From Microcoleus sp. (GTDB lineage Bacteria > Cyanobacteriota > Cyanobacteriia > Cyanobacteriales > Microcoleaceae): a stretch of DNA of 64,000 bases. The DNA lies in assembly GCA_042408215.1 (NCBI GenBank), contig JAYFMW010000005.1, positions 128,001 to 192,000 on the forward strand. Direction: 5' to 3'. The translations under genes and the position numbers were made by a program. Below are positions 37,003-47,945 of the stretch, one piece after another. The notes below the pieces were generated by a model. The model ran no database searches, had not been told where the DNA came from, and worked only from the letters and a program-made list of their open reading frames with translations. Numbering within the stretch: the first letter of the stretch is position 1; each line of letters begins with the position of its first letter.

Positions 37003-37095
37003 AAACCGCGCTTTACCCAATCCTGGCTAATAGAATTCGCTTCCTATCAAATCCTGTGTCATCAATTGGGTTTGATATGATTTATTTTTGGGCTT

Positions 37096-37123
37096 TGCAT
37101 AAAACTGGCTGACTCCTGCGACA
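37096..37123 (+). promoter_or_regulatory. Shared motif copy 1 (TGCATAA-N16-CGACA)
   Basis: Same bipartite motif upstream of four transcription units of the locus. Confidence 0.65.
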
Positions 37124-37153
37124 TCTCTTCAAAAGCGCAGTGGAGAAGCCCCT

Positions 37154-37876
37154 ATGATGATTAATTATACAACTGAATCGGAGAAAGCTTGGTACAAGTC
37201 TCCTGCAATTGTAGCTGCTGTAGGTGTCAGCGCGATCGCCCTTGGAGCATTCATTTACCCAGAACTCGCCAGTCAACCCATTGTACACTACCGCGCTGAC
37301 GATAATTCGCTGTCAGCAGATCGCTACACCTTACAGCGACAATTGCACTGTCAAATCAGCAGCCAACATTATAAACCGGGAGATACCGCTGTCAGCATTC
37401 CGTTTGCCGATCGCGCCGTCGTCACTAAAACCATCTCCATTGCTAACAGTTTAACCCTGATGGGGGAATGTCAACACAACGGGCGAGCCATCACCAACAA
37501 ACAACCCGGAACCTCTCTAACAGCCTTGTTAGAACGCAGTCAATCTGCCATTCAACAACAACATCAAACCAACAACAAAAATCCAGGCATCCTCACCATT
37601 GTAGCAAACGACTTTGAGCCGCGTCAAGGGGATCATGGTATAGATTTTAGTCGAGTCAAAACCCTCGTTGACGACATCGAAAAACAGGGAGTAGTTATCT
37701 CATTTATCGTGCCACAAGGGCAATTATACGAAGACTTGACTAACCAGTTGAGCGGCAAAGAGAGTGTCTGCGTTTTAGATGAAAGCAAAGACGAAGATGC
37801 AGTAAGGCGATCGATGAATCCCTGCATTGATGCAGCCTTCACCCAAGCCAGAAAAATGACACCTAAATCAAATTAA
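37154..37876 (+). CDS. Membrane-anchored protein with divergent vWA-like domain
   Basis: N-terminal TM; D-N-S-L-S (DxSxS), later PGTSL and VAND resemble MIDAS elements (inference). Confidence 0.55.
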   Translation: MMINYTTESEKAWYKSPAIVAAVGVSAIALGAFIYPELASQPIVHYRADDNSLSADRYTLQRQLHCQISSQHYKPGDTAVSIPFADRAVVTKTISIANSLTLMGECQHNGRAITNKQPGTSLTALLERSQSAIQQQHQTNNKNPGILTIVANDFEPRQGDHGIDFSRVKTLVDDIEKQGVVISFIVPQGQLYEDLTNQLSGKESVCVLDESKDEDAVRRSMNPCIDAAFTQARKMTPKSN

Positions 37877-38032
37877 TTGGGTTGGTAATAAGGACTTTAT
37901 TCCTTCTTGTGAGGACTAAAGTCCTGACTACGAACCTAGGATTTCCTGTATCTACAACAACAGTAAAAGCAGTTCAGTTACATCCGTTAAATCCGTTACA
38001 AAATCCGCTGCCGAACTTTTTTCCCCGAATTC

Positions 38033-38059
38033 TGCATAAACCTTCAACCCGTAGCGACA
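38033..38059 (+). promoter_or_regulatory. Shared motif copy 2 (TGCATAA-N15-CGACA)
   Basis: As above. Confidence 0.65.
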
Positions 38060-38085
38060 CTATCTTATAAAGCAAAAAAATCAAG

Positions 38086-39375
38086 GTGACACCAATGAAT
38101 TCTATCACCCATCATAACCACAATTCTGCCGCCAGCATCGTAGCATGGCAATACCTGCACCAAGAATTGACAGCCCTACTCCCCGAACAAATCAAATCCC
38201 AAATGAGTCAGCGGGAAAAACGATACGCAGAAGGAGAAAAAGCCAAAACACGGATTAACGACTTAACCCCTTTAGCGAGGCGCAACCCCAACCCGGAAAC
38301 CAAGAAAATAGTCAATATTTCGGTAGGGTTAATCAGCGCGATTACCTTCAGTGCGGGAGCGCGAATATTGACTTCCGGCTTTGGAAGTATGAGCATTCCA
38401 GCGAGTTTGTTCATCGGGGGCGCAGCGGGGGTAGTCGCGGATAAAAAAGTGATGAAAGTCATGGAGCATTCTCGCAAGAAAAGCAGCACCACGCAAGCAT
38501 TGCAAGATATCCAAAAACAAAAACAGGCTCATCCCGCTAAAAATCCATTTGGCGAACTTTATTACGAATCTCAAACCGCCTTAGTGCTACAAGTCGAAGG
38601 TCAATATTTGAATAAACTACCCTTTAGCGATGTCGGGTTGGCGCTGGGATTGAGCGGCACCGAATATGCGATGTCTCTGGGGATTGTGATCGGGTTGGGA
38701 TTACCGGGGGGAATTCTTTTAAATGCGATCGCAGCCAGCCTACCCGTAGTAATGTTATGGGGAGCAGCATCACTGCAAAACGACGCCTTTGAAATGCCCG
38801 GACACGCCCGTGCCCTAATCGGACAATACGAAAGCAGCCTCCCCCAAGAAATCACCGAATTGGAGGCAAATCAGATTGCCGGAATCGACGAAGAAGTTGC
38901 TCTGAAACAGCGAGAACTCGCCTATGAGCAAGCCTTAAACCTGCGTCGTGAAAAATTTGTCAGCGAAGGCGATACCAGCGGGCGATTGAAGAATTGGGAC
39001 ATGGTAGAAGCTGACTTTCAAATCGGGTGGTACGAGAAAGAAAAGCATCAAATCGAAAAAGACCAGGACGAAAAACGAGAACAGCGTTACTTTAAGTTTA
39101 AAGCCGATGTTGCTCAAATTGCCGAACAGCATCAACCCCCCGCCGGCACTTACTCACCGGAACAAATGGCCCAGTTAAAAAATGAATGGGTGGAAGTCCA
39201 AGAACAAAAATTGAAGGAAATTCTCGCCCATGACATTCAGTGGTTGAATCACAAATACGGCAACAAAATCAAGCATTACGAGGAGGAAATCACCACAGCG
39301 CGACAGCGTTACGCAGAAGCCGAATCTCGGTGGCGGCAAGAACGACATTCTAATGCAATGAAGGATACTGTTTGA
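38086..39375 (+). CDS. Hypothetical membrane protein with Gly-rich hydrophobic hairpins and coiled-coil C-terminus
   Basis: Two pairs of hydrophobic segments; E/Q/K-rich helical tail. Confidence 0.75.
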   Translation: MTPMNSITHHNHNSAASIVAWQYLHQELTALLPEQIKSQMSQREKRYAEGEKAKTRINDLTPLARRNPNPETKKIVNISVGLISAITFSAGARILTSGFGSMSIPASLFIGGAAGVVADKKVMKVMEHSRKKSSTTQALQDIQKQKQAHPAKNPFGELYYESQTALVLQVEGQYLNKLPFSDVGLALGLSGTEYAMSLGIVIGLGLPGGILLNAIAASLPVVMLWGAASLQNDAFEMPGHARALIGQYESSLPQEITELEANQIAGIDEEVALKQRELAYEQALNLRREKFVSEGDTSGRLKNWDMVEADFQIGWYEKEKHQIEKDQDEKREQRYFKFKADVAQIAEQHQPPAGTYSPEQMAQLKNEWVEVQEQKLKEILAHDIQWLNHKYGNKIKHYEEEITTARQRYAEAESRWRQERHSNAMKDTV

Positions 39376-39653
39376 GACTGAAACCCTCTGTATCTCTCGT
39401 TTGTATCGCAGTCTCGATCCCCCTAAATCCCCCTTAAGAAGGGGGACTTTGATCCGAATTCTTGATCTCCCCCGTGTTTTCTCAACAGACTTTGAACTGC
39501 TCTTGTCCCCCCCTTCTTAAGGGGGGCTAGGGGGGATCTGGCCTTAATCGCCAAACAGCAGTCTCTGATTCGGTTTGACCTTAAATTGATCCCAATGGGC
39601 GCAGTACGATGTCCTCGCATCAGGGGCACCGCAAAAAAAACTTTCCCTAAATC

Positions 39654-39680
39654 TGCATAAACCCCCCAACCCCTGCGACA
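39654..39680 (+). promoter_or_regulatory. Shared motif copy 3 (TGCATAA-N15-CGACA)
   Basis: As above; about 30 nt before ATG at 39710. Confidence 0.65.
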
Positions 39681-39709
39681 TCAAAGTATCAACACCCAAA
39701 AACTAGACT

Positions 39710-40646
39710 ATGACGAGACATGATACCCCCGTCGAACCCTTACCAGGCTTGGTTCCTGTAGCCACAAACTTCAACTTGTGGCTGCACCTTCGGAACTCAA
39801 GCCGATTTCCTTGACTTTGTTCTTCCTGGCACGTTACAGCGCTATTTTCTCTGGGATAATTGAACTATCCCGACGTGATAGCAACGTGCCTGTGAACACC
39901 GACGAACGGAGTTACGCGAACTTCTACAACTCTTGAAAGACTCCCAAGCACGGGGAGTCAGAAACACAGAAAGATTCAAAAGATCAATTGTCTAACTCGA
40001 TTCCCGACTCTTGCCCGGAAGTCGCAAATATCGCGACGACCTGAGTCCTACAGATCTGATTTTGATGGACGCACTCCGAATGACGGCCTATGGCGGTTTT
40101 TCAAAACGCTGCCGATATTTTTCGGGACAATTGACCTCGATAATCCACTCGCTGATGATGTCTTGCGAACCAGAGCTGGTTAAGCGGTTGTAATAAACTC
40201 AATATCGCGACTGATTGCAAGATATGCGACGCAGGCACAGAAACATCAGATTTGTCCATTTGGACGAACCTACAAGCGAAGAAAATGCCACAACCAAATC
40301 AGATATTACACCCGATCCGCGACCAGAACCGCCCATCGATTATGTAGAACAGCAAGAGCGTTTTCTGCAACTAAAAGCTTATTTAGAGCAAGACCCGGAA
40401 CAAAGATTGTCTAACTGCTGTACGCGGAAATACCCGATTTGTAACTGTTGGGAACTGATTAAGCGAAGGGTATTAACATCCCCGCCCCAGACCTTTAAAC
40501 AAATCAAAAAAGACCTGGATATTCCCCTCGATAATATTACCAGACTTTGGTACAATAAGTGTGTCCCTCTGTTGGCAGAGATAGCTCAACAAATTGGCTA
40601 CGAAATCGAACCCAGAAGATTACAACAAAAAGAGGATGAGGAATAA
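39710..40646 (+). pseudogene. Sigma-70-like factor; 5' part heavily disrupted (or mis-assembled), C-terminal HTH region intact
   Basis: C-terminal YLEQDPEQRL..KYP.CN...PPQTFKQI..DL.IP...L...C.PLL resembles cyanobacterial sigma-like proteins found before DUF1822 genes; no continuous frame at 39710-40200. Confidence 0.55.
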
Positions 40647-40648
40647 TC

Positions 40649-41490
40649 ATGACTAACACTACTGAACATTGTATCACAATTCGTTTTCAGAAACAAGACT
40701 GCGAGTTGGCGGAAAAATTCGCCGCTTCTCAACCGAATGCTGAGAAAAATCAACAAGTTTATCGCAATACTCTGGCTGTTTTAGCGGTGAACACCTTTGT
40801 GCAAGAATTACGTTATGAAACTGACTTGGATGCTGGCGAAAGTTGGCATCCGGTGCTCAGAATGTTTCATAATGTTGCTGATTTAGTCTTACCGGGAATT
40901 GGCAAGATTGAATGCTGTCCGGTTCTACTTGGAGAAACGGCGATTTCTCTGCCGGAAGTGCGCGAAAATCGCATTGCTTATATCGCAGTTCAGTTTGCGG
41001 AACCTTTCGATAAAGTCAAACTTTTGGGCTTTATTCCGGCTGTGGAAATTGTGGAGGAAACTGAAGCGATTTCTCTCACTAATCTCCAACCAATTGAGGA
41101 ATTGTTGGATTATTTGGATCGAATTGAGTTGGGAATTCCGGTGGCGCAAGTTCTACTTGAAGAAGTGCTATCGGATTTGGCAGAAGATGACCCCGTACAA
41201 GCACAAGCACGAGTTCGGGAGATTTTCCAAAACCAATCTATTGCTGAAATTGTGGCAATTTTGAATCAAGTTTATCGCAGCAACGAGAAATCTGACTGGG
41301 GATATGAAGGGGGGAAGGCTTTAGCGGGAATTGGTGCTAGCAGTGGAGGTTTGGGAGGTATAAATCGATGTTTATCAATTCATCAATCTTCACCGGGGTG
41401 GTTGAGGAGGGTGTGAAAGTGGAACTGAATATAATTGCTGAAGATTTGTTGGAAAAGTTGGCTGAGATTTGGGGAGATGGTGATGAATAA
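40649..41490 (+). CDS. DUF1822 family protein, frameshift near 41375
   Basis: AEKFA.SQP...QVYRNTLAVLAV, ADLVLPGIGKIECCPV, RIAYIAVQF, LLGF; alternate frame continues to ..LLEKLAEIWGDGDE*. Confidence 0.8.
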
Positions 41491-41494
41491 TCTG

Positions 41495-41760
41495 GGGAGT
41501 CGGTGGGTAGCGAGAAACCGGGTTTCTACGAGTTTTTTAGTTGAGTGACGAGAAATCTCCCAAGAAACCCGGTTTCTGGGGAGTCGATGGGTAGCGAGAA
41601 ACCGGGTTTCTACGAGTTTTTTGGTTGAGTGACGAGAAATCTCCCAAGAAACCCGGTTTCTGAGACAAGGTGGGTAGCGAGAAACCGGGTTTCTACGAGT
41701 TTTTTGGTTGAGTGACGAGAAATCTCCCAAGAAACCCGGTTTCTGAGAGTCGGTGGGTAA
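41495..41760. repeat. Three tandem 83/84-bp units with AGAAACCGGGTTTCT...AGAAACCCGGTTTCT hairpin
   Basis: AGAAACCGG at 41513, 41597, 41680. Confidence 0.9.
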
Positions 41761-41786
41761 TTGCTGAAAACATTTTTCGGGAATTT

Positions 41787-41814
41787 TGCATAATTTTCCC
41801 CCAAATTGCCGATA
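41787..41814 (+). promoter_or_regulatory. Shared motif copy 4 (TGCATAA-N16-CGATA)
   Basis: About 33 nt before ATG at 41848. Confidence 0.6.
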
Positions 41815-41847
41815 CATATATATACACAGAATCAAAGGTAAACTCCA

Positions 41848-44800
41848 ATGGACGAACAACGCCTCGCCGCCTATCTCCAACTGATTCAAGCCCTGCTTGA
41901 GTGCCCTAGCGGTGAAGAAGATGATATTCTCGAACGCCCATCGAGAGTTAGTTGATGCGGATTTTGTGCAAGTCATGGAAGCAGTGGCGGCGAATATGGC
42001 AGAAAAGGGCGAATCCAATGCAGGTTGGTTGCAGAATCTGGCGGCACAATTGGCAAATTATGTCCGCAGTACAGCAACTCCTGAAGAGTATTTATCTTTC
42101 TTGATGGAGGTGTTGCAAGCAACGCATGAAAGTCGACGGAAATCCTCAAGTTGTCTATCCTATTTTACAACAAAACTTCGACAAATTGGATTTGAATTTT
42201 GCTCAAATATTGCAAGCTTGGGCCACATCCACATTCACAGAAGTTACCTCAGAACAAGCTGCATCATCGCAGCAGTTATTGGCAATTTTGGCAACTTAAT
42301 TCAGCAGTTTCCCCTGGGGCGGCGGGCATGGAATTTAGAAATAGGTATTGCTTGTTATACCGCAGCCTTAAAAGTCTATACCCGCGAGAATTATCCCGAA
42401 TATTGGGCAACGACTCAAAATTATTTGGGGGCTGCTTATAGTAACAGAATAGAAGGAGTCAGGGCGGCGAATATTGAAGAGGCGATCGCCTGTTATACCG
42501 CAGCCTTAGAAGTCTATACCCGCGAGAATTATCCCGAAGATTGGGCTATGACTCAAAATAATTTGGGGATTGCCTATAGTGACAGAATAGAGGGAGTCAG
42601 GGCGGCGAATATTGAACAGGCGATCGCCTGTTATCGGGAAGCTTTAAAAGTCCGTACCCCTGAGAATTATCCCGAAAAATGGGCTATGACTCAAAATAAT
42701 TTGGGGATGCCTATAGTGACAGAATAGAGGGAGTCAGGGCGGCGAATATTGAAGAGGCAATTTCCTGTTATCGGGAAGCTTTAAAAGTCCGTACCCCTGA
42801 GAATTATCCCGAAGATTGGGCTATGACTCAAAATAATTTGGGGGCTGCCTATAGTGACAGAATAGAGGGACTCAGGGCGGCGAATATAGAACTTGCGATC
42901 GCCTGTTATCGGGAAGCTTTAAAAGTCCGTACCCCTGAGAATTATCCCGAATATTGGGCTATGACTCAAAATAATTTGGGGAATGCCTATAGTAACAGAA
43001 TAGAGGGAGTCAGGGCGGCGAATATTGAACAGGCGATCGCCTGTTATCGGGAAGCTTTAATAGTCCGTACCCCTGAGAATTATCCCGAAAAATGGGCAGG
43101 GACTCAAAATAATTTGGGGGCTGCCTATAGTGACAGAATAGAGGGACTCAGGGCGGCGAATATAGAACTTGCGATCGCCTGTTATCGGGAAGCTTTAAAA
43201 GTCCGTACCCCTGAGAATTATCCCGAAGATTGGGCAGGGACTCAAAATAATTTGGGGGCTGCCTATAGAGACAGAATAGAGGGAGTCAGGGCGGCGAATA
43301 TAGAACTTGCGATCGCCTGTTATCGGGAAGCTTTAAAAGTCCGTACCCCTGAGAATTATCCCGAACAATGGGCAGATGACTCAAAATAATTTGGGGAATG
43401 CCTATAGAAACAGAATAGAGGGAGTCAGGGCGGCGAATATAGAACTTGCGATCGCCTGTTATCGGGAAGCCTTAATAGTCCGTACCCCTGAAAATTATCC
43501 CGAACAATGGGCTATGACTCAAAATGGTTTGGGGAATGCCTATGGTAACAGAATAGAGGGAGTCAGGGCGGCGAATATTGAAGAGGCAATTTCCTGTTAT
43601 CGGGAAGCTTTAAAAGTCTATACCCGCAAGGATTATCCCGAAGATTGGGCTATGACTCAAAATAATTTGGGGGCTGCCTATAGTGACAGAATAGAGGGAG
43701 TCAGGGCGGTGAATATTGAAGAGGCAATTTCCTGTTATCGGGAAGCTTTAATAGTCTATACCCGCAAGGATTATCCCGAAGATTGGGCAATGACTCAAAA
43801 TAATTTGGGGACTGCCTATAGTAACAGAATAGAGGGAGTCAGGGCGGCGAATATAGAACTTGCGATCGCCTGTTATCGGGAAGCTTTAATAGTCTATACC
43901 CCCGAAAATTATCCCGAAAATTGGGCTATGACTCAAAATAATTTGGGGGTTGCCTATAGAGACAGAATAGAGGGAGTCAGGGCGGCGAATATAGAACTTG
44001 CGATCGCCTGTTATCGGGAAGCTTTAATAGTCTATACCCCCGAGAATTATCCCGAACAATGGGCTATGACTCAAAATAATTTGGGGGTTGCCTATAGAGA
44101 CAGAATAGAGGGAGTCAGGGCGGCGAATATAGAACTTGCGATCGCCTGTTATCGGGAAGCTTTAATAGTCCGTACCCCCGAGAATTATCCCGAACATTGG
44201 GCAACGACTCAAAATAATTTGGGGATTGCCTATAAAAACAGAATAGAGGGAGTCAGGGCCGAGAATATAGAAGAGGCAATTTCCTGTTACCGCTTAGCCT
44301 TAGAAATTCGCACTCCTACTGCTTTCCCTTTAGACTGCTTGCAATCAGGTAGAAACCTCGGCAATACCGCTTTCACTGCTGGCTTCTGGGACATCGCCCT
44401 GGAAGGATTCGAGAAAGCAATTCAAGCAGTAGAAAAAAGCAGAAGTTGGGCAACTTCCGACGATATCCGCCAACAGATGATAGCAGAATCCATCGGTGTT
44501 TACGAAAAGGCAATTCAAGCTGCTGTCAACAACAACCAACTGGAAAAAGCCATAGAATATTGCGACAGAACCCGTGCTCAGCGGTTAGTGGATTTAATGC
44601 ACAGCAATGACTTGTATGCTAGCGGCGAAATTCCGCCCGCAGTGCAAAAGTATTTGGATGAATTTGAAGCGAAGCAGCAGGAAATTGACGCAGAAGTCGA
44701 ACAACTCCGCAATCCATCGGAGGGGAATAAGGGATTAGCTGGTGTGGGGAGTTCGTCGCGGAGTCGGGCGGATACTTCTGCTTACACGAAGAAGATTCAA

Positions 44801-46448
44801 GAATTGGAAGGGGAGAAACAGCAAATCTGGGAAAACATCCGCAGTTTAGATCCAGTTTTAGCGGGACAAGTTCAAGTTGTGCCGATGCAGTTTGCGGCGA
44901 TGCAGCAGTTGATTGATAATTCCCAGACGGCGATTCTCTGTTTTTATACGACGGATGATGACACTCATGTTTTTGTGATTTACAAGGATAAAGCGCCGCA
45001 GATTCACACTTGTCAGGGTGAGGGTTGGGGAAGTTTTCAGAAGTGGATTCGCTGAGAGTTGGTTGTCGCCTTATTTGGAGGATAGGAAAGGTTGGCAGCA
45101 GGGGATGGGTGAGTTTTTGTCTCAGTTGTCGCGGCGGTTGAAGGTTGATGAGTTGATTGGTAATTGTTTGGATGGGATTGAGGAATTGATTGTGATTCCG
45201 CATTTGTATTTGCATCAGATTCCGTTGGCGGCTTTGCCGGTTAATACCCTCGCAACCGAGGAGGGCGGGCACGGGGGCACCGCCCCTACAAATCCAGGGC
45301 TTGAGAGGGGGCTTGGTGTAGAACCCCCCCAACCCCCCCTTGGTGAGGGGGGGCTTAAGACTGTAGAACCCCACCTTGGTAAGGGGGGGCTTAAGAGTGA
45401 GACCCCCCCCCTTGGTGGGGGGGAAGAACCCCCCCAACCCCCCCTTGCTAAGGGGGGGCTTAAGAGTGAGATTTCTGCCCTGACGAAGGAACAAAAACTT
45501 GTTCTTTCTCCCCCCCTTAGCAAGGGGGGGCCGGGGGGGGTTCTTAGCGATTATTTCCTAATTCGTTACATTCCCAGTTGCCGAATTTTGGAGTATTGCA
45601 GTCAACGTCCCACCATTGAATCGCCGAAATACGGGATTGTGGAAAATGCCACGGATGATTTGTACTTCACTCCTTTTGAGTGCGAACAAATTGCCGAAAT
45701 TGTGACGGTAACTGAACGCTTAAAAGGAAGTCAAGAAGCAACAGTCGCCGCCTATCGAAACCTGACCCAAAATGTGAATGTCATCCACTCCAGTCACCAC
45801 GCTGTCTCGCGTTTGGACAATCCTTTAGAATCGCGGTTGTTTTTAGGAGACGGGAGTATCACGTTAGGGGAATTGATGACTCCTGGTTGGCGCTTACCGC
45901 AGTTATCGGATGTGTTTATGTCTTGCTGCGAAACTAATTTAGGAGATACGGAAATTACGGATAATCTGCTGAGTTTGGGTACGGGGTTTTTGTGTGCTGG
46001 AGCTCGCAGTGTGGTGAGCACTTTGTGGGAGGTGGATGATTTTGCTACTTCGTTGTTTTCGATTTTTTACTATCAGTATCGTCGGGAAGGTTTGAGTCGT
46101 CCAGAGGCTTTGTGGCGGGCACAGGTGCGGTTGCGGACGATTTCGGGCGCGGAGTTGGAAGGGCTTTATAAATCGCAAATTGATGCGCTGCTTCCGAAAG
46201 TTATTGGGGATTTAAAATCTCAATTGGCTGTGGTTCAAAAGGACAAAAAGGAGTTGAAAAAGCATCCAAATCGCTCGATCCAGGGAACGGATGAGTTTAA
46301 GAAGTTTAAGGAAATAGTGAAGCAGGAGAATAAGATTCAGGATCGAAAGAAAGGATATGAAAGTTGGAAAACAAATCTTTACACTATGTCAAATCCTTTT
46401 GATGATTTGATTTATTGGTCGGGGTTTATTTGTCAGGGTTTGCATTGA
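41848..46448 (+). CDS. Large TPR-CHAT (caspase-like) protease, split by about 6 frameshifts
   Basis: Start MDEQRLAAYLQLIQALLECPSGEE; 14 x 46-aa TPR-like repeats; CHAT motifs LIVIPH..LHQIP, IHSSHH, MSCCET, VVSTLWEVDD, YWSGF. Confidence 0.85.
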
Positions 46449-46783: not shown

Positions 46784-47945
46784 TTATTCCGCATCCAATA
46801 TTTCTACAATGTTAACTCTCAAAACGCCGCGACTCAACCTCACAGTCAATTCCTCTCCCAATTGCAAACCCTCAGTCGTGCGGGCGATGGTACCGTCATT
46901 TTGTTTAACCGCAGCATAACCTCTTTGCAAAACCGCCGCCGGATTTAATGCGGACAATTTTTGTTGCAGCACTTCTAGTTTACCACTTGCCTGCTGCAAA
47001 GTTCGCGATGTCAAAGGCAATCGTTTTAAGCGATTTTGTAACAGTTGCAAATGCTGTTCTTCCCTCTGAAATCTTCCCCGCACAGCACTTGACAAATCCC
47101 TCGTTCTCTGCTTGTGTTGTTGGTAAATATTTGCTAAAACTGGCACTGCTTGTTCCGCTGCTGCTGTGGGAGTGTGAGCTCGTTTATCTGCTACTAAATC
47201 TGCCAGAGATTCATCTCTTTCGTGCCCGATACCGGTGATAATTGGAATCGCACAATTGACGATCGCCCTGACAACTCTTTCATCATTAAAACAAGCCAAA
47301 TCCTCCGCAGAACCGCCGCCACGGGCTAAAATGATCGCATCGGCCCTACCGTCCAATTCTACAAGGGCGATCGCCCTGACAATGGCAGCAGCAGCCAATT
47401 CTCCCTGCACTCCTGTCGGCGACAGCAACACCCGCAAACCTGGATATCTTTGGGCTAGAGTGCGCTGAATGTCTCCCCAAGCCGCACCGGTATCGGATGT
47501 TACTACGGCGACAATTTGCGGGTGTGGGGGGAGTGGGCGTTTTCGGGCGCGATCGAAAAAACCCTCAGCCTCCAAGCGCGATCGCAATTGCTGCAACCGC
47601 AAAGCTTGTAATCCTTCCCCGGTGGTTAGACATTGGGAAACATTCAACTGGTATTCGCCGCGATTTTTGTAAACCCGGAGGCTTCCCGATACCAGCAATT
47701 GCGCTCCTTTTGTCGGTGTCTGTATTAATTTTTGCCGCTGAGATTTCCAGACTACGCAGCGAATCGCAGCGCTTTTGTCGCGCATCGCACAGGGTGAAAT
47801 AGGTGCCGCTGGGGTGTTCGGAAACGCTGGCTACCTCCCCTGTTACCCAGAGGGATTGCAAGTGGCGATCGCCCTCCAACAAGTCTTGGAGGTATGATGT
47901 TAGTCGAGCCACAGATAAAGCTATGTCGGAAATAGTTGAAGTCAT
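46784..47945 (-). CDS. xseA: Exodeoxyribonuclease VII large subunit, frameshift near 47790
   Basis: LSVARLT, WVTGEV, YFTL in first frame; ARGGGS.EDL..FN, GIGHE.D, TPTAAAE in second. Confidence 0.92.

Follow-up and report, generated by a model that had tools for sequence, protein, structure and literature searches.

A 64-kb window of the genome of the filamentous cyanobacterium Microcoleus sp. (64,000 nucleotides, part of contig C5 in the 30-contig genome G000 of 7,362,316 bases) contains a locus of five genes on the + strand. These encode, in order, a von Willebrand factor A (vWA)-like protein, a membrane protein, a sigma-like protein, a DUF1822 protein, and a protein combining tetratricopeptide repeats (TPR) with a caspase-like CHAT protease domain (TPR-CHAT). 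The bipartite motif TGCATAA-N15/16-CGAYA is located upstream from four of the five genes. Site P1 (37096..37123, + strand, TGCATAA-N16-CGACA) lies 30 nucleotides (nt) upstream from the ATG codon of the vWA-like gene at 37154. Site P2 (38033..38059, +, TGCATAA-N15-CGACA) precedes the membrane gene, 26 nt upstream from a GTG codon at 38086 and 35 nt upstream from an ATG codon at 38095. Sites P3 (39654..39680, +, TGCATAA-N15-CGACA) and P4 (41787..41814, +, TGCATAA-N16-CGATA) are located 30 nt upstream from the ATG codon of the sigma-like gene at 39711 and 33 nt upstream from the ATG codon of the TPR-CHAT gene at 41848, respectively. An earlier sequence-only reading had placed the motif at 37096, 38033, 39654, and 41787, and every coordinate was borne out, at 26 to 33 nt from the start codons.

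The pattern was searched for on both strands of the whole genome. In the window, it was found exactly four times, always on the + strand; the mean for 100 dinucleotide-preserving shuffles was 0.02, and none of these reached four. A high genome-wide frequency had been raised as a concern along with the initial reading. Just six strict matches were present in 7.36 Mb, four of them within a 4.7-kb segment at the locus. The two remaining matches (C6:549170 and C6:880240) are antisense to open reading frames (ORFs) of 486 and 769 residues, and this antisense position inside long ORFs indicates that they are not in promoter position. Tolerating one mismatch increased the number of genome matches to 93, and promoter-like placement was restricted to the sites of the locus and to C5:499495, beside a paralogous sigma/DUF1822 system. 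The latter scan revealed nothing convincing as a further regulon member beyond the sigma/DUF1822 loci. Apart from the two boxes and a T-rich stretch located some 10–20 nt upstream, the four promoter classes differ in sequence, which speaks against both a mobile repeat and a duplicated segment as the source of the motif. A simple consensus scan for sigma-70 promoters detected none at the four upstream regions.

To assess the conservation of the motif, the DUF1822 protein was used as the query against 61 genomes (this genome and 60 relatives), and orthologs displaying 59–93% identity were identified in 15 congeners. The motif was present at the start of the sigma gene in all 16 orthologous loci (the window and 15 relatives), with TGCATAA and CGAYA kept and the spacer substituted at several positions, so that the proposed comparison of orthologous loci was in favor of the motif. 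All 10 orthologous loci in which the start of the vWA-like gene is retained, be it only as a remnant, have a P1-type site before it. P2 was strict in four of the six loci holding the membrane gene; L048 harbored TGCCTAA and L046 no recognizable site. At P4, TGCATAA was present in 9/9 loci with a TPR-CHAT start, the second box being CGAYA in six, CGATC in two, and CCCAT in one. Among the 16 genomes with an orthologous DUF1822 gene, 36 of the 68 pattern matches fall in this one locus, and the backwards pattern gave eight matches. Certain motif-bearing sequences outside the locus were identical across several genomes, for example TGCATAAATTAAAAGAAAAATTCCGACA (G029:C61:140, G017:C260:496, G026:C14:46346, and G024:C460:992), and could be further targets or merely conserved coding sequence. 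In several congener loci (L049–L055 and L026), the vWA-like and membrane genes are deleted, and P1 and about ten codons are left approximately 145 nt upstream from the sigma promoter.

Three further genera also carry the motif, next to either sigma/DUF1822 genes or pairs of vWA and membrane genes. The strict motif is immediately upstream from sigma-DUF1822 in G038 (L081), as it is in the congener G008 (L082). In G050 (L084), a small lipoprotein-like ORF stands between the motif and sigma-DUF1822. In G051 (L086), the motif is located upstream from homologs of the vWA-like protein (34% identity, E 3e-42) and of the membrane protein (34%, E 9e-70), this pair being divergent beside sigma-DUF1822 and a CHAT fragment. 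The order vWA-like, membrane, and sigma gene was found again in G169, G152, and G202, at 50–53% identity (50% for the vWA-like protein in G169 and G152), with the variants TGTATAA-N16-CGATA and TGCATAA-N15-CGATT upstream from the vWA/membrane pair and the sigma gene adjoining. Paralogous systems of G009 and G014 carry the same strict motif. Two paralogous loci of the window's own genome were also inspected. The locus at C5:499495-503083 (L010) contains the one-mismatch motif CGCATAA...CGATA and a sigma gene that is seemingly truncated in comparison to a 423-residue relative (L082). The locus at C28:13361-16997 (L009) contains TGCGTAA-N16-CGAAA upstream from the sigma gene and a pentapeptide-repeat gene at the protease position.

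The Bacillus subtilis sigma factors sigmaW, sigmaX, and sigmaM, which belong to the extracytoplasmic function (ECF) type, recognize TGnAAC-type -35 and CGAC/CGTA-type -10 elements 16–17 nt apart. The geometry and some of the letters of these promoters match TGCATA(A)-N16/17-CGAC/T, whereas the -35 letters differ and the sigma protein of the locus is below all curated ECF thresholds. The reading of the motif as a -35/-10 alternative-sigma promoter, as initially suggested, is supported by its rarity in the genome, its clustering at the locus, its conservation with varying spacers, and its presence at related sigma/DUF1822 systems of other genera. Judged from these sequence comparisons, TGCATAA-N15/16-CGAYA is probably a private -35/-10 promoter, read by the sigma factor that the locus itself encodes.

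The vWA-like gene, the membrane gene, and all four motifs are intact, in contrast to the three remaining genes. The sigma-like gene (39711..40646, +) is broken into ORF fragments at 39778-39936, 40011-40193, and 40215-40646 (52, 60, and 143 residues), the last of which contains the sigma-4 part. The ends of the gene resemble the allele of G005 and G029, and its middle resembles the G014/G009 allele with many indels of 1 to 3 bases. For the sigma-2 region, the congeners have two strongly divergent alleles (comparison with L017, L046, L047, and L056); the gene of the window is a mosaic with indels only in the middle block, which could result from recombination between alleles or from a chimeric consensus. 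The DUF1822 gene (40649..41490, +) comprises an ORF at 40649-41416 (255 residues), with the C-terminal helix encoded in another frame to approximately 41490; the frameshift, near 41390, removes this conserved helix. The TPR-CHAT gene (41848..46448, +) is collinear with orthologs of 965–1230 residues and contains frameshifts near 41934, 42705, 43385, and 45040, two of which are in or at the edge of the TPR array; the two breaks that were inspected are single-base insertions. The working circuit assumed by the sequence-only reading is thus not what this copy encodes, with sigma in three fragments, four frameshifts in TPR-CHAT, and DUF1822 devoid of its C-terminal helix. What this assembly shows is either a switch in decay or a mis-assembly.

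The breaks in sigma, DUF1822, TPR-CHAT, and the adjacent gene xseA may be assembly or consensus errors, or reflect a mixed-strain chimera, the system of the organism itself being intact and working. We regard this explanation as a real possibility, albeit not the favored one. The xseA gene (exonuclease VII large subunit, 46784-47945, - strand) is itself split by a one-base insertion near 47780 in comparison to three orthologs, leaving an ORF of 333 residues versus 389; a broken housekeeping gene beside the locus raises the question of assembly quality. Assembly errors would also suit the location of two of the CHAT frameshifts in or beside a 14-copy, 91%-identical array, which is hard to assemble, the occurrence of the examined CHAT breaks as 1-base insertions amid well-conserved sequence, and the mosaic sigma gene, which combines allele types from different relatives. 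Four sequencing runs were compared, in the form of contigs of related strains (an 'RNA' library can hold DNA). The 10-base deletion of DUF1822 was absent from these contigs in three of the four runs, which had 10 extra bases at 41392-41399. However, each run contained at most 0.40 of the words of the stretch, and these are not the strain's own reads. In addition, the indels are outside homopolymer runs, and about a dozen of them are within 400 bases of the sigma gene, versus none in the neighboring 2 kb encoding the vWA-like and membrane proteins.

Intact orthologs of the sigma-like protein contain 301–324 residues, and these were used to assess its identity. A search of 1.84 billion representatives identified 211 sigma-family relatives (E<=1e-3), mostly of 230–260 residues, matching residues 62-302. 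The best matches of a 48-sequence sigma profile among PDB sequences were SigA (E 1.3e-3) and SigW (8.5e-3), both weak; a profile of the seven close orthologs retrieved nothing from the PDB sequences, and the close-ortholog profile (alignment A1), scanned against the genome contigs, matched congeners only. Paralogs scored 16.9 bits against TIGR02937, for a cut-off of 42.9. The own genome contains six matches to the sigma family profile. The AlphaFold2 model of an ortholog (mean predicted local distance difference test [pLDDT] of 79.8) comprises disordered residues 1-60, a helical region at 61-172, a disordered linker, and a second helical region at 203-297. VIA-align matched residues 61-172 to sigma-2 domains (pro-sigmaK, Z 8.1, root-mean-square deviation [rmsd] 3.2, 95 residues aligned; SigW, Z 7.9; sigmaE region 2, Z 7.5) and residues 203-300 to sigma-4 domains (SigL, Z 6.5; SigR region 4, Z 6.3; sigmaE region 4 on -35 DNA, Z 5.8); by VIA-align's own caution, Z values of 6–8 are middling for helical models, a point on the negative side, yet the list consists consistently of sigma factors. 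The Foldseek list obtained against the PDB was also almost all sigma factors, yet the best E was 7.4e-3, with none at E<=1e-3. Our reading of these models and profiles is that the protein would be a genuine but very divergent two-domain ECF-like sigma factor. The initial 'sigma-like' label therefore holds for both the sigma-2 fold and the sigma-4 fold and for the profile evidence from intact orthologs, without backing from Pfam or NCBIfam.

The DUF1822 gene starts 2 nt after the stop codon of the sigma gene, a gap that fits a sigma/anti-sigma pair. Its label was confirmed by Pfam (40649-41413, PF08852, E 1.4e-40, Pfam positions 5-203 only); the orthologs contain 281–295 residues. In the model of the protein (pLDDT 85.6; predicted template modelling score [pTM] 0.83), residues 10-145 form an alpha/beta domain, which is followed by helices. 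Structural alignment of this N-terminal domain returned nucleases in nine of the 11 top rows, including I-Ssp6803I (Z 9.2, 117 residues aligned, rmsd 2.9), Hjc (Z 8.1, 7.2, 6.7, and 6.3), D212 (Z 7.3), NhoI (Z 6.7), and DpnI (Z 6.5). The modelled domain thus has a predicted restriction-endonuclease-like (PD-(D/E)xK) fold. Foldseek returned no match to the DUF1822 model in the PDB at E<=1e-3, and the DUF1822 profile gave nothing meaningful against PDB sequences, indicating that there is no solved relative by sequence. In an alignment of 34 sequences, D79 and E89 are invariant (34/34) and K87 is present in 31; position 91, the usual location of the nuclease Lys, is R in 17, C in 16, and L in one. 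The C-terminal part contains a Gly-rich disordered loop (residues 228-245 in ortholog numbering), mostly ending in a basic residue, followed by a strongly conserved acidic helix.

The complex of sigma residues 60-302 with DUF1822, a check proposed by the sequence-only reading, was modelled in three runs. The scores were 0.73, 0.74, and 0.73, versus 0.00 for the best control, a mark reached by 116 of 157 solved complexes and by 2 of 215 mismatched pairs; these values are the predictor's own confidence, obtained from alignments that we built, and are to be discounted to that extent. Contacts agreed by at least 79% across runs, and the partner pLDDT was at least 80. Since DUF1822 has no solved relative by sequence, the pass is unlikely to be due to memory. 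The modelling supports the binding of DUF1822 to the sigma factor. The predicted interface involves residues 130-166, 197-226, and 254-297 of sigma (the end of sigma-2, the linker, and sigma-4) and residues 10-162 of DUF1822. Anti-sigma factors of ECF pairs, such as RseA bound to sigmaE, usually adopt this geometry. That DUF1822 inhibits the sigma factor is, in our estimate, somewhat likely.

The N-terminus of the Microcoleus sigma orthologs is extended by 60 conserved residues, with a hydrophobic stretch at about 32-52 and low model confidence; most family members lack this extension, a possible pro-sequence or membrane tether. Regarding the C-terminal end of DUF1822, a beta domain of the long form also occurs as a stand-alone ORF of 124 residues (L078 11457-11831), and the same domain is present at the C-termini of EACC2-type CHAT proteins in paralogous systems (L078 6815-8464 and L079 7870-9051), a distribution suggestive of a common adaptor. 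This domain is missing from the short DUF1822 encoded here.

DUF1822 might not be an anti-sigma factor at all, being instead a nuclease-fold co-factor or effector, and TPR-CHAT would then cut another substrate, candidates being the 60-residue N-terminal extension of sigma, acting as a pro-sigma, and the vWA-like or membrane proteins. We consider this unlikely. The best matches of the DUF1822 N-terminal domain are indeed PD-(D/E)xK nucleases, led by I-Ssp6803I and Hjc, with D79 and E89 invariant, but the canonical nuclease Lys is replaced at position 91. The extension of the sigma orthologs is conserved, poorly modelled, and contains a hydrophobic stretch, and the top VIA-align row for sigma is pro-sigmaK complexed with its processing protease; the constant coupling of the sigma and DUF1822 genes nevertheless suits a stoichiometric partner. 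An inhibitory DUF1822 is therefore retained below.

The TPR-CHAT label was confirmed by Pfam for both parts, with CHAT (PF12770) matched at E 9.4e-29 in the window and at E 4e-25 in an intact ortholog. The His and Cys motifs of the protease are present (HSSHHA and SCCETN). The CHAT domain of the ortholog occupies the C-terminal end (926-1228 of 1230) and is preceded by a TPR array. The array of the window (42364..44289, +) comprises 14 copies of a 138-nt unit (46 residues), 91% matching. Since the orthologs range from 965 to 1230 residues, the number of repeats differs between species, as expected of a fast-evolving sensor. The CHAT domain also contains a repeat-derived insertion (45290..45540, +), which is in frame and coincides with a depth spike in bin 45242-45558. 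This insertion is a high-copy repeat, translated as 'PPLAKGGLKSE...', and the intact G009 ortholog (L056) holds it at residues ~860-930. The insertion seems to be tolerated or used.

The two other proteins preceded by the motif are predicted membrane proteins, as had been proposed for the induced products. The vWA-like gene (37154..37876, +) encodes 240 residues with one N-terminal transmembrane (TM) helix (15-39) and the DxSxS-type motif DNSLS, which is DNSSS in the G051 homolog. The protein has no Pfam match; in a language-model atlas, its likeness to VWA clusters was 0.93–0.94, with 143–150 shared features, which is rated weak. The vWA-like label thus keeps the motif and the cluster likeness, as a lead only, without a Pfam match. 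The membrane gene (38086..39375, +) encodes 429 residues with about four hydrophobic segments (74-96, 99-118, 183-204, and 207-230) followed by a long charged helical C-terminal half. It has no Pfam, NCBIfam, or PADLOC match, and the atlas search was uninformative (scores of 0.82–0.83). The gene is rare (13 of 301 genomes sampled from the order) and adjoins the vWA-like gene in the six loci with a whole copy (L088, L089, L091, L093, L101, and L094). PADLOC assigned none of the five locus proteins to a defence-system family, returning only two chance-level rows for TPR-CHAT. Two repeats are located between the genes. A high-copy short repeat, an inverted 'CCCCCTTAAGAAGGGGG'-type element (39400..39530, no strand assigned), is intergenic; each of the four runs shows depth spikes there (bin 39219-39535), ranging from hundreds to thousands. 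A tandem repeat of 3.2 copies of an 83-nt unit (41497..41759, +), with GAAACCGGGTTTC hairpins followed by T runs, separates the DUF1822 and TPR-CHAT genes.

We lean, by a modest preponderance of the evidence, towards reading the locus as a Microcoleus-type member of the cyanobacterial systems composed of a divergent ECF-like sigma factor, DUF1822, and a caspase-like (CHAT) protease, in which the motif would be the private promoter of sigma and the switch would be released by the protease. The sigma factor would read TGCATAA-N15/16-CGAYA at four units. Unit 1 would provide the membrane-anchored vWA-like protein, unit 2 the four-TM coiled-coil protein, unit 3 the translationally coupled sigma-DUF1822 operon, thereby establishing positive feedback, and unit 4 TPR-CHAT. 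DUF1822 would keep the sigma factor inactive. If HetF/PatU3 and Csx29/Csx30 are taken as models, the highly repetitive TPR array may sense a signal that activates the CHAT protease, and active TPR-CHAT would remove DUF1822, freeing the sigma factor. The conserved basic residue following the Gly-rich loop of DUF1822 (ortholog residues 228-245) is a candidate cut site, as a lead only. The freed sigma factor would amplify its own operon and the protease gene, and induce the two membrane proteins. The use of the promoters by sigma, the proteolytic release, and the roles of the membrane proteins are what we infer. Cleavage of DUF1822 by TPR-CHAT, which rests on analogy, is proposed tentatively and is open to more doubt than the inhibition of sigma by DUF1822.

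In a more ambitious version, DUF1822 would represent a previously undescribed anti-sigma class, derived from a restriction-endonuclease fold that has degenerated, and would be released by the TPR-CHAT protease of the locus, with hypervariable 46-residue sensor repeats. The system would combine a closed, self-amplifying regulon of four promoters with the vWA-anchored and four-TM proteins as sole outputs, serving filamentous cyanobacteria as a module for a caspase-triggered membrane response (defence or cell fate), and would be of separate origin from HetF-PatU3-HetZ with the same wiring. Taken as a whole, this version is doubtful, and we are inclined not to believe it.

Several observations weigh against the preferred reading. 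The sigma gene is broken in this genome, so that the promoters cannot be served in cis as assembled. The evidence for the promoters is confined to sequence, and the four runs compared are contigs of related strains. Curated families do not recognize the sigma-like protein, which has no Pfam match in any of the seven orthologs and no NCBIfam match; among 48 family members, sub-threshold matches to Sigma70_r2 and r4_2 were obtained for six and three, respectively. The second box of the CHAT promoter differs from CGAYA in three loci. The 32 matches found outside the locus in the 16 genomes exceed the backwards control of eight; some of them are beside paralogous systems. A large paralogous sigma/DUF1822 group (L035–L044) has no such motif upstream from the sigma gene, indicating that autoregulation is not universal in the family. 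Finally, a P1-type site is present in G004 (C4:33154) and G016 (C30:41240), in which a DUF1822 ortholog was not found at E<=1e-20.

The latter sites and the broken sigma gene, beside intact promoters and output genes, would also suit a functional motif read by another factor, either a paralogous sigma in trans or a DNA-binding regulator of two half-sites. This genome has six sigma-profile matches, providing at least four more family members, the C28 paralog has a look-alike (TGCGTAA-N16-CGAAA) upstream from its own sigma gene, and specificity may be shared with the G009 and G014 paralogous systems, which use the strict motif. However, we find another reader quite improbable, as the motif accompanies sigma/DUF1822 loci across four genera, precedes the sigma gene itself in 16/16 loci, as expected of an autoregulated ECF-type factor, and has a fixed 15/16 spacing at 26–33 nt from the starts, which suits a -35/-10 pair over an operator. 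The assignment of the motif to the local sigma factor is thus preferred.

The gene trio has been catalogued previously. Neighborhoods combining sigma, DUF1822, and caspase genes ('EACC2') were described by Kaur, Burroughs, Iyer, and Aravind (eLife 2021, PMC8195603), who propose stimulus-induced activation of the peptidase with the sigma factor as the transcriptional output. The same trio is present here (divergent ECF-like sigma, Pfam DUF1822, and CHAT protease), and is likewise assigned to multicellular cyanobacteria (PMC8195603). Paralogs of the window's own genome match the catalogued architecture, with CHAT-CHASE2 at C17 and CHAT-NACHT at C5:503107 (CHAT near the N-terminus). The form of Kaur et al. 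has an N-terminal EACC2-caspase module and a variable C-terminus (PMC8195603), whereas TPR are followed by a C-terminal CHAT in the locus. DUF1822 is called a 'TPR protein' by the same authors (PMC8195603), whereas our model shows an alpha/beta nuclease-like fold followed by helices. The promoter motif, the regulon, and an anti-sigma role of DUF1822 are not named in the part of the paper that could be consulted (PMC8195603).

Heterocyst development in Anabaena PCC 7120 provides a functional parallel. The CHAT protease HetF cleaves PatU3 after Arg117, and PatU3 binds HetZ (PMC9457339). HetZ, an ECF-type sigma factor, carries three insertion domains (i1, i2, and i3) and recognizes TCCGGA-N16-17-TGNA, with PatU3 as a potential anti-sigma factor (PMC13342950). 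According to these sources, the HetF-PatU3-sigma(HetZ) system is cyanobacterial and CRISPR-independent, encodes the inhibitor in the sigma operon, and has a self-activating private -35/-10 promoter with 16–17 nt spacing (PMC9457339, PMC13342950). The parts differ. Compared with the three insertions reported for sigma(HetZ), the model of the locus sigma contains only sigma-2 and sigma-4, with disorder at the N-terminus and in the linker, and no insertions; the HetZ promoter (PMC13342950) also differs from TGCATAA-N15/16-CGAYA. The hetF gene is not adjacent to hetZ, whereas the protease gene is here inside the locus. In the own genome, the sigma family profile gave, beyond DUF1822-linked paralogs, one weak match only. 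The term 'DUF1822' is absent from PMC13342950 and from those of its supplements that were searched.

Related arrangements are found outside the cyanobacterial examples. In Myxococcus xanthus, DdvA is a single polypeptide in which a periplasmic TPR-CHAT is joined with a TM helix and a zinc-binding anti-sigma domain (PMC11506125). As in the locus, the ECF sigma factor DdvS is under an anti-sigma function coupled to TPR-CHAT, and the output described there is a local gene island (PMC11506125). In comparison with DdvA as described, the sigma-binding DUF1822 and TPR-CHAT are here encoded by separate genes 430 nt apart, each unit with its own motif, and the fold of DUF1822 is different. In type III-E CRISPR systems, Csx29 (TPR-CHAT) cleaves Csx30, the inhibitor of the ECF-like CASP-sigma (PMC10028731). 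This craspase shares with the locus a TPR-CHAT protease, a cleavable sigma-binding inhibitor (putative in our case), and an ECF-like sigma factor with binding motifs in its own locus (PMC10028731). The CHAT domain of the locus matched Csx29 (NCBIfam NF041237) at E 4.3e-16 and 58.9 bits, far under the cut-off of 300 bits. No Cas7-11 or CRISPR RNA component was found among the locus genes examined; unlike craspase, activation here cannot be RNA-guided in that way. Proteolytic release thus has precedents, by analogy, in PMC9457339, PMC13342950, PMC10028731, and PMC11506125. The CRISPR-independent protease-sigma circuit put forward by the sequence-only reading is accordingly not a new category, with HetF-PatU3-HetZ (PMC9457339, PMC13342950) and DdvA/DdvS (PMC11506125) as precedents and the trio itself in PMC8195603.

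Both the category of CHAT-protease/sigma switches and the sigma/DUF1822/caspase trio are therefore already known. New for this subtype are a promoter motif with its proposed closed regulon, an architecture of TPR then CHAT coupled to a vWA/four-TM output pair, and, for DUF1822, a predicted nuclease-like fold and modelled binding to sigma. In the searchable literature, which leaves out subscription-only papers and most supplements, only computational cataloguing of the trio was found. As the copy in the window is itself broken, the value of this particular stretch is limited; intact orthologs occur in cultured Microcoleus/Tychonema-type strains. The trio is widespread in multicellular cyanobacteria, and the locus renders the system testable by providing a compact conserved motif with four targets, a model-supported sigma-DUF1822 pair, and a two-gene output. 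For annotation, DUF1822 may merit the description 'sigma-binding, nuclease-fold protein' rather than 'TPR protein'. More generally, the comparison suggests that cyanobacteria make repeated use, with differing components, of the logic recently proven for heterocyst development, in which an ECF-type sigma factor loses its inhibitor to a CHAT protease.

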